Assembly: GCA_045648965.1 (NCBI GenBank) | Contig: JAZRPA010000026.1 | Location: 9,451 to 73,450 of the forward strand | Direction of reading: 5' to 3' | Source: Alistipes sp. | GTDB taxonomy: Bacteria; Bacteroidota; Bacteroidia; Bacteroidales; Rikenellaceae | Length of the DNA stretch: 64,000 nt | Shown here: positions 4,064 through 14,607 of the stretch, piece after piece | Layout: every line of letters begins with the position of its first letter | How positions within the stretch are numbered: position 1 is the first letter of the stretch | Notes under the pieces: model-generated | The model's database searches: none | Told to the model about the DNA's origin: nothing | The model's input: the letters and a program-made list of their open reading frames with translations, nothing else | Translations under genes and position numbers: made by a program

Positions 4064-5377
4064 ATGGCAATTAAATTTGTTACTCCGGAAGAGGCCGTAA
4101 AGGCGATTAAGTCGGGTGATCACATTCACCTTTCGTCGGTTGCTTCGGCACCGCAGTGCTTGATTAAGGCTATGTGCGAGCGTGGTCGCGCAGGCGAGTT
4201 GAAGGACGTTCACATTCACCACCTCCACACCGAGGGTCCTGCACCATACGCAGAGCCTGAGTTCGAGGGTGTATTCCAGCTCGATTCGTTCTTCGTAGGT
4301 GGCAACGTACGTAAGACAACCCAGGCAGGCTATGCTGACTATATTCCAATCTTCTTGAGCGAGACTCAGAAGTTGTATCGTTCGGGTGCAGTACCTTGTA
4401 ACGTGGCTATGATTCAGGTTTCTACCCCTGACCAGCACGGCTATGTTTCGCTCGGTACTTCGGTAGACGCTACCCTCGCAGCTGTTGAGTGCGCCGACAC
4501 CGTAATCGCAGTTATCAACAAGTATGTTCCACGTGCTTGGGGTGATGCTATGATTCACTCGTCGAAGATTGACATCTTCGTTCAGGACGACCAGCCACTC
4601 GAGGAGGCACACTTCTCGGAGCCAAACGAGGTTGAGGTTAAGATTGGTAACCTCTGCGCAGGTCTTATCGAGGACGGTGCAACCTTGCAGATGGGTATCG
4701 GCGCTATTCCTAACGCCGTACTCGCACAGCTCGGCAACCACAAGAACCTCGGTATCCACACCGAGATGTTCGCTGATGGCGTTCTCCCTCTCGTTGAGAA
4801 GGGCGTAATCAATGGCGAGGCTAAGAATATCGATAAGGGTAAGATGGTTTCGACCTTCTTGATGGGTTCGCAGAAGGTTTACGACTTCATCAACGACAAC
4901 CCAGGCGTATTGATGATGGACGTAGGCTACACCAACGATCCATTCATCATCGCAAAGAACGACCGCGTAACAGCTATCAACTCGGCTTTGCAGGTTGACT
5001 TGACAGGTCAGGTTTGCGCTGACTCACTCGGTCGCAAGTTCTACTCGGGCGTAGGTGGTCAGATCGACTTTATCTATGGTGCATCGTTGTCGAAGGGCGG
5101 TAAGGCAATCATCGCTATGCCTTCAATCACCAACAAGGGTGTTTCGAAGATTTCGGACGTTCTCACCGAGGGTGCTGGTGTTGTTACTACTCGTAACCAC
5201 ATCCACTGGTTCGTAACCGAGAATGGTGCTGTTGATTTGTATGGCAAGAGCTTGCAGGAGCGTGCTCGCCTTATCATTTCGGTGGCTCACCCATCGGCTC
5301 AGGAGGCTCTCGACGAGGCAGCGTTCAACCGCTACGGAAGTCATCACCACTATATTAAGGGGTATATGAAAAAGTAA
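4064..5377 (+). CDS. Acetyl-CoA hydrolase/transferase family protein (4-hydroxybutyrate CoA-transferase-like)
   Basis: Motifs LQMGIGAIP, HTEMFADG, NSALQVDLTGQV, SGVGGQIDF; 437 aa. Confidence 0.88.
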   Translation: MAIKFVTPEEAVKAIKSGDHIHLSSVASAPQCLIKAMCERGRAGELKDVHIHHLHTEGPAPYAEPEFEGVFQLDSFFVGGNVRKTTQAGYADYIPIFLSETQKLYRSGAVPCNVAMIQVSTPDQHGYVSLGTSVDATLAAVECADTVIAVINKYVPRAWGDAMIHSSKIDIFVQDDQPLEEAHFSEPNEVEVKIGNLCAGLIEDGATLQMGIGAIPNAVLAQLGNHKNLGIHTEMFADGVLPLVEKGVINGEAKNIDKGKMVSTFLMGSQKVYDFINDNPGVLMMDVGYTNDPFIIAKNDRVTAINSALQVDLTGQVCADSLGRKFYSGVGGQIDFIYGASLSKGGKAIIAMPSITNKGVSKISDVLTEGAGVVTTRNHIHWFVTENGAVDLYGKSLQERARLIISVAHPSAQEALDEAAFNRYGSHHHYIKGYMKK

Positions 5378-5406
5378 TCGGAATACCGAGACTTATCGTA
5401 TATGCA

Positions 5407-5434
5407 AAGCCTTCCCAATCGGGAGGGCTTTTTT
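5407..5434 (+). terminator. Intrinsic terminator
   Basis: Stem AAGCCTTCCC / GGGAGGGCTT followed by a T run, 30 nt after the stop codon. Confidence 0.85.
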
Positions 5435-5439
5435 CTTGG

Positions 5440-5632
5440 CTTTTAGCTATTAGCTTTTTAGCGCAGCATAATGGCATGCGCTCCCGTTGGTCGCTGAATG
5501 GCAACAAATGGCAATCGCTCGTTACACTCGCTGAATGACAAAGCGCCCGTCATTAAGCACTCCTTTGGAGTGCGCTGCCATTAAATGCCATTAAGGGCGA
5601 AAGCCCAAATGCCATTCAATGCCATTTTTGGC
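5440..5632. repeat. Composite palindromic element A (AATGGCA left arm, TGCCATT right arm, internal hairpins)
   Basis: AATGGCA at 5470, 5497, 5507; AATGACA at 5534; CGTCATT at 5548; TGCCATT at 5576, 5586, 5610, 5620; hairpins GCACTCC-TTT-GGAGTGC and GGGC-GAAA-GCCC. Confidence 0.85.
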
Positions 5633-5641
5633 GCACACCTC

Positions 5642-5676
5642 TTGCTCAATCAAAAATAATTTTCTAAATTTGTAGT
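5642..5676 (+). promoter_or_regulatory. Bacteroidota sigma-A promoter of the AT-rich island
   Basis: TTG at 5642 and TAAATTTG (TAnnTTTG) at 5665-5672. Confidence 0.7.
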
Positions 5677-5932
5677 GCAATCCTCAGATTGCAGACATAT
5701 TATTAGTGAAAGTGTTTCGCTAATCCTTTGTAGTGAAATTTGGCGATTTTATAAGCATAAGGATAAGCAACAGCACTCAACACCGCATTTGGTATATCAT
5801 TTTCTACATATACCATTCGGTGTGAGGTATTGTTTATTTATGCTTGGGCCACGCCAAATGCCTACTACTTGATAAACGAACTGCCTCACACTTTCTTTTT
5901 ATATTAACTGCTCGTTCGAGGTAGGTGGGCAA
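5676..5932 (+). ncRNA. Putative structured 5' leader or ncRNA of unknown family
   Basis: Complementary segments found by eye: hairpins at 5676-5693 and 5702-5724; a long nested stem at 5739-5858 (TTTGGCG/CGCCAAA, AAGCATAA/TTATGCTT, CACCG/CGGTG, TGGTATAT/ATATACCA); another stem at 5860-5930. Confidence 0.45.
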
Positions 5933-5949
5933 ACAAAAAAAAATATATT

Positions 5950-6210
5950 ATGGGAAGACATCACGACAACTGTGTCTCAATGATTTTTTTTCTACCAATA
6001 TATATATGCCTTTGGGGCGTTGAGATTGGTATTAAAATAGCAGGAACTTGTGGAATAGCAATCCTTGCAATCTTATGGGTAATATTAGGCATGCCTCTAT
6101 ATCTCTTGATAGATTTATTCGGAGGAGATGCGAAAGATGGCTGGAATTATGGAGATTCTCTTCTTCATATGTTGGATGCCTTGTGGAGTTCAAACATTTT
6201 TATAAAGTAA
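5950..6210 (+). CDS. Hypothetical small membrane protein (86 aa)
   Basis: A-rich initiation region before the ATG; long hydrophobic stretch; AT-rich coding; no family recognised. Confidence 0.55.
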   Translation: MGRHHDNCVSMIFFLPIYICLWGVEIGIKIAGTCGIAILAILWVILGMPLYLLIDLFGGDAKDGWNYGDSLLHMLDALWSSNIFIK

Positions 6211-6219
6211 TACCGTAGT

Positions 6220-6573
6220 ATGAAAGCAAATGTAAGAAATGGATTGACTATTCGTGATTTAAAAGACGAGCTTTTTACAACTAGTCGCTGGAAAAAATTT
6301 GTTTATTTTGCAGCAATCTATAGTTGGGATGATGTTGCTGGTCCCCCGATTGAGAAAGTTATCAAGACGGAGTACAATGGTAAGGTTGTTGCTGCTTTAG
6401 TTTATAGTCTAAAAAGAGGCGGAGAAGATTTAACTGCTAATGATGTACAAACTGCTCTAACATGGTTAGGTGTACCTGAACACACCGAGGTTGTTCTTCT
6501 TGATAAGGACAATTCCACCATAAGTTATGTTAAGAAAGTGTATAGTTGTTTGGATATGATATTTCTATACTGA
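6220..6573 (+). CDS. Hypothetical protein (117 aa)
   Basis: ATG 9 nt after the previous stop; followed by hairpin and terminator; no family recognised. Confidence 0.6.
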   Translation: MKANVRNGLTIRDLKDELFTTSRWKKFVYFAAIYSWDDVAGPPIEKVIKTEYNGKVVAALVYSLKRGGEDLTANDVQTALTWLGVPEHTEVVLLDKDNSTISYVKKVYSCLDMIFLY

Positions 6574-6617
6574 TTTATGTAAATAAGTTATCCATTAGAG
6601 TACAATATATTAAAAGC

Positions 6618-6647
6618 TATATGAAGAAATAGCGATTTCTTCATATA
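6618..6647. repeat. Perfect 13-bp inverted repeat
   Basis: TATATGAAGAAAT-AGCG-ATTTCTTCATATA. Confidence 0.85.
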
Positions 6648-6650
6648 ATC

Positions 6651-6680
6651 ACAAAGACCTTCCATTCGGGAGGTCTTTGT
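6651..6680 (+). terminator. Intrinsic terminator of the island ORFs
   Basis: ACAAAGACCTTCC-ATTC-GGGAGGTCTTTGT. Confidence 0.75.
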
Positions 6681-6699
6681 TGCTTTCGGCATCAAAGAA

Positions 6700-6777
6700 A
6701 ATTTAAGGAATTTAGGGAATATAGAGAATTTAATGAGTCTATTCTAATTTCTTTAATCTCCCTAAACTCTCTAAATT
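6700..6777. repeat. Element C: inverted array of 9-mers (4 + 4)
   Basis: AATTTAAGG AATTTAGGG AATATAGAG AATTTAATG, then TTCTAATTT CTTTAATCT CCCTAAACT CTCTAAATT. Confidence 0.75.
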
Positions 6778-6799
6778 CACTATTAAATAAATTGTCTCT

Positions 6800-6823
6800 C
6801 TACTCACTACTCACTACTCACTA
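6800..6823. repeat. Heptamer tandem array (CTACTCA x3)
   Basis: Read directly. Confidence 0.85.
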
Positions 6824-6853
6824 AAAAAGCCTTCCACTATAGGAAGGCTTTTT
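6824..6853 (-). terminator. Terminator of the uxa operon (bidirectional form)
   Basis: AAAAAGCCTTCC-ACTATA-GGAAGGCTTTTT next to the uxaA stop. Confidence 0.85.
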
Positions 6854-6857
6854 AAAA

Positions 6858-8351
6858 TTATAGCGTTACGCCCGTCTTGAAGATTGCTATCTCCTTGAAG
6901 CCTGTTTTTTCGTGCTTCAGCTTCTCGCCATTGACCGTAGCGAGAATCTTCTCGATAAGGCGCTCCAGCACAACCTGCGGCTCCTCGTCCTCAATCATTG
7001 TGCCGGCATTGAAGTCGATCCAATTAGCCTTGAACTGCGAGAGTTGCGAGTTGGTCGATATCTTCATCGTAGGAACGAACGCCCCAAACGGAGTACCGCG
7101 ACCCGTCGTGAAGAGTACAATCTGGCAACCCGACAACGCAAGCGACGACGAAGCAACGAGGTCGTTACCCGGTGCCTGCAACAGATTCAAGCCCGACTTA
7201 ACAATAGGCTGGCAGTAGCTCAGCACATCGACAACCTGCTGCGCACCACCCTTCTGCACACAACCGAGCGACTTCTCCTCGAGGGTTGTGATACCGCCCT
7301 TCTTATTGCCCGGCGAAGGGTTTTCGTAAATCGGCTGGTCGTACTTGCGGAAGTAGCCCTTGAAGTCGTTGATAAGGCATACCGTATTCTCGAATACCTC
7401 TTTATTTATAGCGCGGTCCATCAGGATAGTCTCGGCACCGAACATCTCGGGCACCTCGGTCAAAATTGTTGTTCCGCCCTGAGCAATAAGCCAATCCGAG
7501 AAGAGGCCCACCAATGGGTTGGCGGTAATGCCCGAAAAACCGTCCGAGCCACCGCACTTCAAGCCCACGCGCAAGTAGCTGAGCGGCAGAGGCTCGCGCT
7601 TATCCTCGCGAGTCTTCTCGACGAGTTCTTTACATATCTCGAAACCCGTTTCAATCTCGTCCTCGACCTCCTGAGCGATAAGGAACTTCACGCGCTCCTC
7701 GTCCCACTCGCCGATAACCTCCTTGAACGAGGCTATCTGGTTGTTCTCGCAACCCAAGCCGAGTACAAGCACCGCACCTGCATTCGGGTGCTTCACCAGC
7801 GCCGCCAATGCGTGCTGCGTATTGGCGTGGTCCTCGCCCAACTGCGAACAACCGTAGTTGTGGGTATAGACGCGTACATCGTCCAAGTGCGAGCAGTCGC
7901 ACTCGCTCTTTACGCGCTCGGCAATAGCCTGCGCCTGGCCATTCACGCAACCTACCGAAGGTACAATCCACAACTCGTTGCGAATACCCATAGTATTGTT
8001 CTTGCGCAAGTAGCCCATAACCTTCATATCGTCGCGCTTTGGATACTCTACCGCATAGGTCTTGTGGTCGTAGGTATATTCGATATTATCGTGCAAGTTG
8101 GTCTTGAGGTTGTGCGAGTGAATCCACGCGCCCACCTCGACTGCCGCCGTTGCGTGGCCGATTGGGTAGCCATACTTGATGACATTCTCACCCTCGGCAA
8201 TCGGCTTAATGGCGAACTTGTGGCCACGACCGATATCCTCCTTCAAGGTTATCGCCTGGCCGTCAATCTCGACCACCTCGCCCGCCTTCAAGTCGTCGGC
8301 AAGAGCTACGGCTACGCTATCGACAGCGTTGATTTTCAAAAATCGTTTCAT
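6858..8351 (-). CDS. uxaA: Altronate dehydratase
   Basis: N-terminal SAF domain (GHKFA, VIKYGYPIG); GLKCGGSDGFSGITANP; operon context. Confidence 0.95.
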   Translation of the reverse strand: MKRFLKINAVDSVAVALADDLKAGEVVEIDGQAITLKEDIGRGHKFAIKPIAEGENVIKYGYPIGHATAAVEVGAWIHSHNLKTNLHDNIEYTYDHKTYAVEYPKRDDMKVMGYLRKNNTMGIRNELWIVPSVGCVNGQAQAIAERVKSECDCSHLDDVRVYTHNYGCSQLGEDHANTQHALAALVKHPNAGAVLVLGLGCENNQIASFKEVIGEWDEERVKFLIAQEVEDEIETGFEICKELVEKTREDKREPLPLSYLRVGLKCGGSDGFSGITANPLVGLFSDWLIAQGGTTILTEVPEMFGAETILMDRAINKEVFENTVCLINDFKGYFRKYDQPIYENPSPGNKKGGITTLEEKSLGCVQKGGAQQVVDVLSYCQPIVKSGLNLLQAPGNDLVASSSLALSGCQIVLFTTGRGTPFGAFVPTMKISTNSQLSQFKANWIDFNAGTMIEDEEPQVVLERLIEKILATVNGEKLKHEKTGFKEIAIFKTGVTL

Positions 8352-14572: not shown

Positions 14573-14607
14573 TTGCTCAATCGAAAAAGATTTCCTAAAT
14601 TTGTAGT
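14573..14607 (+). promoter_or_regulatory. Promoter of the S1/P1 nuclease gene
   Basis: TAAATTTG at 14596-14603; 31/35 identical to 5642-5676. Confidence 0.7.

Follow-up and report, generated by a model that had tools for sequence, protein, structure and literature searches.

Which function is carried by a long structured RNA lying between a promoter and two small genes of an Alistipes sp.? The question arises from a stretch of 64,000 nucleotides (nt) of contig JAZRPA010000026.1 (assembly GCA_045648965.1, positions 9,451 to 73,450), hereafter the window, whose numbering is used throughout. A preliminary description of the window had noticed, directly after a promoter, a highly structured segment of about 270 nt (5676-5949) with four consecutive stems, and had considered either a cis-regulatory leader or a standalone small RNA (sRNA). 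Bacteroidales dominate mammalian gut communities, and RNA-based regulation in these bacteria is poorly charted; to our knowledge, they have no Hfq, ProQ or CsrA and barely use Shine-Dalgarno pairing. We found that the element is multicopy, order-wide and able to fold in two ways, which goes beyond what had been noticed. The interpretation that we favour, with moderate confidence, is a cis-acting 5' leader of about 275 nt, a two-state terminator/antiterminator switch that governs any gene placed behind it.

We first consider the fold itself. As RNA, the segment 5676-5949 reaches -79.9 kcal/mol, compared with -54.7 +/- 4.5 kcal/mol for 200 dinucleotide shuffles (z = -5.62; no shuffle was as good). 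Its helices covary across about 100 non-redundant homologs, and the strong structure initially noticed is thereby borne out. From an alignment of 104 copies with less than 93% identity to each other, the pairs of highest mutual information form antiparallel runs (z = 13-31), with three or four Watson-Crick types per pair. In a first conformation, state A, the centre of the leader forms a long rod, P3 (Table 1). The four stems seen at the outset are all present, but the nested rod, placed at 5739-5858, reaches further out, to P3a. Two long-range helices close this rod. L1 joins UUUCG (5715-19) to CGAA (5877-80); its covarying forms include UAUUAG:CUAAU and UUUAG:CUAA, and its length also varies in a compensatory way (UUUUUCG:CGAAAA). 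The adjoining L2 joins two invariant strands, GAAAGUGU (5708-15) and ACACUUUC (5888-95), with a compensated form, AAAGCGU:ACGCUUU, in distant homologs. On alignment A2, state A is 79% paired and its covariation score is 0.300 vs. 0.176 +/- 0.003 after shuffling (0/500); the score drops to 0.07-0.195 when the partners are slid. When nascent transcripts were folded with RNAfold from the start site to the U tract, L2 formed in 91 of 99 sequences and the rod in 88.

Outside the rod, three local helices are also conserved. The 5'-terminal hairpin P1 is paired in 91% (5677-5692) and 93% (5678-5691) of the sequences at two of its positions, with CG, UA and UG pairs; it is probably a stabiliser of the 5' end that protects the mRNA. 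P4 (5881-87/5918-24) is 87-88% paired, five of its seven pairs covary with changes on both sides, and it ends 25 nt before the ATG at 5950. Of 86 copies, 93% keep four or more base pairs in the P5 hairpin (5909-14/5926-31), vs. 53% of shuffles. The stems 5859-5869/5919-5930 of the single-sequence minimum free energy fold are unconserved (51-52% paired) and were replaced by P3a, P4 and P5.

The leader holds a second conserved structure, state B, which is made of the H5 domain and of a terminator-like hairpin, Alt-A. The latter was chosen by RNAalifold on two alignments. Its GC-rich consensus is GGUGUGRGG:CYYCACACU, the core is 99.8% paired and the extension 89-96%, and the loop carries the descending strands of P3a-c. 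A U tract, UUCUUUUUAU, comes immediately after Alt-A and is kept there in all copies and in the distant homologs; the hairpin competes with P3d/j:n and with L2. This is the architecture of an attenuator-type terminator. Within Rikenellaceae the core is invariant, A occurring only opposite U at the two variable pairs (16/16). In Prevotella-type distant homologs GUGUG:CACAC becomes GCGUG:CACGC, in one further homolog (L173) it becomes GUGCG:CGCAC with d, GAAAGUGU, unchanged, and in Fibrobacter the extension reads UUGCGC:GCGCAA. In the GCGUG copies, strand d becomes AAAGCGU and strand k becomes ACGCU, so that d, k, m and s all change at one position; this joint change is what an exchange between pairings 1:2 + 3:4 and 2:3 + 1:4 of the four segments defined below predicts. 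H5 is 81-96% paired, with the compensatory variants AUUCUU:AAGAAU, GUCC:GGAC, GCCUAU:AUAGGC, UCCC:GGGA and ACCUUG:CAAGGU, and the strands inside it are exactly the ascending strands of P3a-c. Taken as a whole, state B is 86.4% paired, with a covariation of 0.194 vs. 0.158 in shuffled alignments (0/500) and 0.05-0.11 with slid partners. The leader thus has two mutually exclusive conserved structures that both covary, one of them with a terminator-like platform, as expected of a riboswitch.

Table 1. Positions of the features of the leader locus in the window
Feature	Position	Strand	Description
CoA-transferase gene	4064-5377		Its terminator lies upstream of the leader
Strain-variable island	5378-6602		Word-array palindrome, promoter, leader and cargo; 1.2 kb
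Promoter	5642-5672	+	-33 TTG (5642-44); -7 box TAAATTTG (5665-5672); Bacteroidota type
P1	5676-5682/5687-5693	+	5'-terminal hairpin UGCAAUC-CUCA-GAUUGCA; structure kept, sequence varies
Linker	5694-5702	+	AGACAUAUU; conserved, single-stranded; columns nearly invariant in alignments A1/A2
P2	5702-5724	+	Local hairpin; contains switch segment 1 (d + e)
d	5708-15	+	GAAAGUGU; invariant; partners s (L2) or k (5773-77)
e	5715-19	+	UUUCG; partner q (L1)
H5 domain	5723-5764	+	AUCCUU (5723-28):AAGGAU (5759-64); inner hairpin AAAU:AUUU (5736-39/5746-49)
P3 rod (state A)	5729-5869	+	Covariation
P3a	5729-35/5863-69	+	z = 13-28; up to four Watson-Crick types per pair
P3b	5738-45/5852-59	+	z up to 31; 99% paired
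P3c	5753-59/5839-45	+	Covaries
j:n	5765-72/5828-35	+	Part of P3 rod
P3d	5776-85/5818-26	+	Covaries
Apical hairpin of rod	5790-5815	+	
Alt-A	5819-5892	+	GGUGUGAGG (5819-27):CCUCACACU (5884-92); extension UUGUUUAUU (5830-38):GAUAAACGA (5871-79)
Segment 4 (q, r, s)	5877-5895	+	q = CGAA (5877-80), L1 partner of e; r = CUGCCUC (5881-87), P4 5' strand; s = ACACUUUC (5888-95), L2 partner of d and Alt-A 3' strand
U-rich tract	5896-5907	+	UUUUUAUAUUAA; directly 3' of Alt-A/L2; candidate termination point
3' platform	5909-5931	+	t = GAGGUAG (5918-24), P4 3' strand, pairs with r; P5 alternative encloses t
Translation-initiation region	5931-5952	+	A-rich; with ATG (5950) of first cargo gene
Cargo of window copy	5950-6573	+	86-aa membrane protein (5950-6210); 117-aa protein (6220-6573); AT-rich two-gene unit

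We therefore propose an exchange of partners among four segments, numbered 1 (d/e, 5708-19), 2 (j/k, 5765-85), 3 (m/n, 5819-38) and 4 (p-s, 5871-95). In state A, segments 2 and 3 would pair, P3a-c would lengthen this pairing into the rod, and segments 1 and 4 would close the domain through L1 and L2. The strands of Alt-A would then be sequestered, RNA polymerase would pass, and either r:t (P4) or P5 would form beside the A-rich start region. In state B, P2 or the 1:2 pairing would hold the 5' half together with H5, while segments 3 and 4 would form the GC-rich hairpin followed by five to seven U, and transcription would stop before the gene, about 50 nt upstream of the ATG. P1, at the extreme 5' end, would guard the read-through mRNA. 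Termination by state B, regulated switching and the identity of the ON state are all inferred from these predicted folds.

Several points weigh against such a switch. For the nascent transcript of the window copy, state A is predicted at -71.9 kcal/mol and state B at -66.9 kcal/mol, and when Alt-A is imposed on 99 sequences, the mean penalty is about 12 kcal/mol and H5 appears along with it. Given this difference in stability, state B would require either kinetic trapping of early local hairpins or a stabilising factor. The Alt-A loop, of about 32 nt, is unusual for an intrinsic terminator. Both the Alt-A core and L2 are invariant in Rikenellaceae, and their compensatory changes come from few distant homologs, which were aligned with a model built on Alt-A. 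That H5 and P3a-c exclude each other is a steric argument: a 6-bp stem cannot close a loop in which 30 nt are stretched along a helix of about 21 bp, so that the two should be alternatives. L2 also abuts the U tract, and the ON and OFF assignments could therefore be reversed. Termination and regulated switching are predictions, and the metatranscriptome contigs considered below are assemblies that carry neither strand nor end information and may derive from DNA. Finally, the ligand cannot be guessed, as the downstream genes share no pathway.

Some of these points would suit a constitutive expression module without any switching, i.e. a stabilising, translation-enhancing 5' untranslated region (with its 5' hairpin, compact fold, pyrimidine-rich loop and A-rich start region) that spreads with a strong promoter and whose alternative helices are folding intermediates. 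The position of P1 at the extreme 5' end, the A-rich region ahead of the ATG, the strong thermodynamic preference for state A, the absence of a shared function among the downstream genes and the use of promoter and P1 alone at other places all fit this explanation. However, compensatory changes maintain H5 and Alt-A, which would have no role in a single-state leader, and the hairpin of Alt-A type with its U tract is the most widely conserved part of the element, retained for instance in Fibrobacter despite a different 5' module. We therefore consider a constitutive module to be unlikely.

The two-state switch that we favour shares its working principle with the expression platforms of classical attenuators and riboswitches. 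As in terminator/antiterminator leaders (riboswitch platforms, trp-type and protein-dependent attenuators), helices are mutually exclusive, one of them is a GC-rich hairpin with a U tract, four segments swap between 1:2 + 3:4 and 2:3, and compensatory change keeps both arrangements. Unlike these leaders, the present one has no known aptamer, leader peptide or binding-protein motif, and it has an additional closing helix, 1:4. It is set apart above all by its multiple copies (at least 10 per genome), placed ahead of unrelated accessory genes rather than of one pathway, and by its linkage to a promoter with which it moves, whatever the cargo. A leader peptide was rejected as a general mechanism: in some subfamilies a mini-ORF (open reading frame) runs over GAAAGUG, but on inspection its start codon is missing in many copies. 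In the window, this mini-ORF (5706-5723) reads GUG-AAA-GUG-UUU-CGC-UAA over the invariant GAAAGUG block, and another subfamily has AUG-AAA-GUG-UAU-UAG.

Then, we investigated how many copies of the leader exist and where they are found. In its own assembly (1.98 Mb, 26 contigs), BLAST placed the leader at 19 sites, an nhmmer profile gave 10 near-full copies on 9 contigs (70-77% identity) plus fragments, and a covariance model gave 12 matches. All 18 same-genus genomes sampled with BLAST possess it. The covariance model R1, which represents the 125-position 3' module (3' half) of the leader and not its full length, matched 98 out of 151 Rikenellaceae genomes (24 of 31 genera), with 1 to 16 copies each, and 51 out of 251 genomes of the same order (42 of 184 genera), compared with a single match among about 290 genomes from the rest of the phylum. 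Outside Bacteroidales the leader is thus either sporadic or too diverged for R1. The close homologs come from Alistipes sp., Tidjanibacter sp. and Rikenellaceae bacterium, mostly metagenome-assembled genomes from ruminant gut. A pattern scan combined with R1 revealed more divergent copies in Prevotella, Paraprevotella clara, Muribaculaceae, Paludibacteraceae, Tannerella and Seramator and, beyond Bacteroidales, in one Flavobacterium, one Kordia and several Fibrobacter metagenome-assembled genomes.

This leader RNA class appears to be undescribed so far. The absence of any known riboswitch, first judged by eye, holds against Rfam 15: only three tRNAs were found in the whole window at the gathering threshold, nothing relevant was found on the leader in 5380-6900 at E <= 10 (the best match was mir-2814, 29 bits vs. 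90), and no family was found on the leader of the distant homologs at E <= 0.01 and E <= 0.05. Neither the window copy nor the distant homologs contain an aptamer of known class in these scans. The literature that we consulted on structured RNA of Alistipes/Rikenellaceae, FopS, attenuation in Bacteroidetes and cis-regulatory RNA of Bacteroidota does not describe it, nor is it mentioned in Fremin & Bhatt 2021 (PMC8040213), in the Minerva preprint or in the F. psychrophilum transcriptome paper (PMC9723704). A weak match to the DUF805b RNA motif (L177:2312-2344; 25.6 bits vs. a threshold of 35.6) lies some 700 nt downstream of one of the distant copies.

The promoter is conserved together with the leader in every copy, with the -7 box at a constant distance in the alignment of 9 own-genome copies, and this box makes a transcript start near 5676 plausible. 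In addition, contigs from bovine and mouse gut metatranscriptomes hold family members with 88-99% identity, which support transcription of the leader, short of proof. The module made of the promoter and P1 (5642-5700 in the window) is also used elsewhere without the leader body. Nine kb away (14573-14607), it precedes a gene encoding an S1/P1 nuclease. It stands ahead of the same nuclease gene directly after the CoA-transferase gene in one relative (G001), and ahead of a 325-aa lipoprotein in another, G005; the places concerned include L301:1048-1102 and L298:716-788.

Promoter, U tract and copy number would also fit a standalone, multicopy, trans-acting sRNA, which had been one of the initial suggestions. 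Its product would be an RNA of about 220 nt, from the start site to the U tract, and the downstream genes would be expressed by read-through only. The U tract does follow a strong helix, short leader-only contigs exist in metatranscriptomes, and the linker AGACAUAUU is a conserved single-stranded block. There is also a precedent in Bacteroides with FopS/GibS, 65-70-nt trans-acting repressors of susC mRNAs with 12-15 copies per genome, canonical sigma-ABfr promoters, an R1' seed at the 5' end and their own terminator (PMC11697453). The leader resembles them as a Bacteroidales multicopy RNA family with a canonical promoter that is possibly spread by mobile DNA. In contrast, and on the basis of their descriptions only, it is longer (about 275 nt), has a two-state fold and is always followed immediately by an ORF. 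None of the sRNA families of Rfam, whose library includes the Bacteroides BTnc models, matched it. Moreover, conservation and covariation extend beyond the U tract as far as the start codon (P4, P5), and the first ATG lies 57-69 nt past the invariant CACACUUUC (CACACUU) block in most of 95 copies from many genomes. An ORF in the same orientation follows every copy, and some metatranscriptome contigs continue beyond the U tract. Leader-only contigs are expected in any case, because assemblers break at repeats. The variable cargo of the suggested sRNA is therefore real, whereas its standalone nature is improbable.

The cis-acting leader raises the question of which genes it would control. The check set beforehand, a conserved leader with variable genes downstream (hereafter cargo), was positive: the cargo genes are unrelated to each other. 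The two cargo ORFs of the window have no Pfam match and nothing alike in 41 same-genus genomes. In the same genome, the cargo consists of small membrane proteins (CD225, DUF805), lipoproteins, a 476-aa MORN-repeat protein and ORFs without Pfam match; the copy on contig C5 precedes the DUF805 protein. Across genomes, sizes range from 46-aa peptides to 1500-aa lipoproteins. About 60% of the first cargo ORFs behind the 95 copies have signal peptides, lipoboxes or N-terminal transmembrane segments, and a crude hydrophobicity measure gives an export signal in 65% vs. a background of 45%, a modest enrichment. Judged by their N-terminal sequence, the others include a Dcm-like methyltransferase, a kinase, Zn-ribbon proteins and small helix-turn-helix (HTH) proteins. 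Pfam searches of 20 sampled cargo ORFs gave only CD225, DUF805, MORN_2, Laminin_G_3, Por_Secre_tail and PEGA, or nothing. The leader is thus associated with accessory genes, of which the majority, though not every one, is exported.

Certain cargo types recur behind leaders of different families. HTH proteins of about 78 aa are found at three loci (L200, L202 and L166), and Dcm-like C5 methyltransferases in an Alistipes-like genome and in Fibrobacter (L034, L196). Peptides of 45-60 aa with the motif P..EV....E.GFA.S (L026, L037, L102, L051, L108) might be precursor peptides. The C-terminal sorting domain of type IX secretion (Por_Secre_tail) is carried by Bacteroidales/Paraprevotella cargo (L224, L198 and probably L256).

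A common pathway, which would be expected behind a riboswitch, was not found among 95 + 26 first cargo ORFs. A small molecule, a protein or the kinetics of transcription could each act as the effector; such heterogeneous cargo points to a global signal or a protein, rather than to a pathway metabolite. This heterogeneity also argues against the kinship with type I toxin or phage-immunity transcripts that had been suggested. Like the mRNAs of type I toxins (hok, tisB, zorO, aapA1), the leader is long and folded with long-range 5'-3' pairing, and its cargo includes some small hydrophobic proteins (of 86, 76 and 92 aa in the window's genome). However, most of the cargo is not toxin-like, since it includes lipoproteins of up to 1500 aa and enzymes such as methyltransferases and kinases as well as HTH proteins, and the leader sequence is common to different loci, unlike in type I systems. 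A consensus scan gave no convincing antisense promoter over the leader (one minus-strand site, 5969-5942, 9/12), and neither an antisense partner nor a prophage context was seen. A phage or plasmid origin was likewise rejected, the matches being limited to two unannotated virome contigs (69-71% identity), with none in plasmids. These leader-like sequences, from human faecal viromes (MT836914.1:4260-4460 and MT838511.1:1845-1997), could represent bacterial DNA, either transduced or contaminating, or else a cassette carried by a phage.

To understand how leader and cargo vary between strains, we compared the locus with that of relatives. Promoter, leader and cargo belong to an island with a GC content of 0.30-0.40, compared with about 0.50 in its flanks. 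The island is missing in five same-genus relatives (G001, G014, G015, G016 and G421), where the CoA-transferase gene joins the 6603-6686 terminator directly. At the same site, G433 has a full leader with a 329-aa lipoprotein, G419 a full leader with a 304-aa protein, and G005 the promoter and P1 only, with its 325-aa lipoprotein. Two metatranscriptome/metagenome contigs skip 5371-6638 and 5432-6699, respectively. The island is enclosed by three terminator hairpins (5405-5434, 6652-6681 and 6825-6854) of one sequence family (70-80% identical). Those at 5405-5434 and 6652-6681 form a direct repeat with a spacing of 1247 nt; they lie close to the ends of the sequence that relatives lack and may provide the homology used for gain and loss of the cassette. 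Word-array palindromes lie on both sides of the island, an ATGGCA/TGCCAT array upstream (5440-5632) and an array of the 9-mer AATTTAGRG downstream (6700-6823); both array families recur on many contigs of the genome. The downstream array has a weak Rfam match to the Bacteroides sRNA BTnc231 (27.5 bits, E = 0.0036, minus strand 6650-6794).

High copy number and insertion or replacement polymorphism between repeat arrays and similar terminators could indicate a DNA-level element, in which the palindromic rod would serve for recombination or transposition (as a miniature inverted-repeat transposable element, or as a site resembling a repetitive extragenic palindrome or attC) and would fold as single-stranded DNA, the RNA structure being incidental. 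The reverse strand of 5676-5949 does fold well (z = -4.93). Nevertheless, the supported helices contain 662 G.U cells vs. 212 A.C cells on the plus strand (3:1), the covarying helices L1, L2, Alt-A, H5 and P4 are long-range and non-palindromic, and orientation and distance relative to promoter and ATG are strict. The functional molecule is thus most probably RNA rather than DNA. Neither terminal inverted repeats nor target duplications were seen at the leader ends, and no recombinase is evident among the ORFs listed next to the own-genome copies, although no dedicated search was made. We regard a DNA-level element as very improbable.

The leader cassette invites a comparison with mobile promoter and integron cassette systems, with which it shares a conserved non-coding module, variable cargo and different cassettes per strain at one locus. 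Unlike in integrons, the module lies 5' of the ORF with its own promoter and RNA switch, and its copies are dispersed, not arrayed. Integron core sites (R''/R'), i.e. a RYYYAAC/GTTRRRY pair at the rod ends, were not seen by eye, no pattern search having been run, and no integrase gene is evident near the leader copies, again without a dedicated search. In the switch that we favour, the leader would move with its promoter and terminator as a cassette of strain-specific, mostly exported accessory genes. Homologous recombination between leader copies and the terminator or array repeats is a reasonable guess for the exchange of these cassettes.

A broader proposal, which we put forward only tentatively and consider doubtful, is that these leaders form an order-wide class of regulatory RNA, sporadic in Flavobacteriia and Fibrobacter. 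Such portable, promoter-linked four-strand switches would place acquired, mostly exported accessory genes under one global signal, read by a new aptamer or by a dedicated RNA-binding factor. In enterobacteria, ops/JUMPstart-RfaH acts on horizontally acquired operons. If the proposal is true, the leaders would define a "leader regulon" of the flexible genome with the same role, but encoded in RNA structure. Occurring in two thirds of the sampled Rikenellaceae and a fifth of the sampled genomes of the order, with as many as 16 copies in a genome, the leader would govern dozens of strain-specific proteins, both surface and secreted, simultaneously. Should it sense a metabolite or bind a protein, it would be a new sensor that defines a new regulon within the flexible genome; should it be only a portable expression module, it would be a ready-made promoter and untranslated-region part for the engineering of gut anaerobes. 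The element also illustrates how accessory genes of these bacteria are assembled into cassettes and replaced by one another at hot spots, with no recombinase in evidence.

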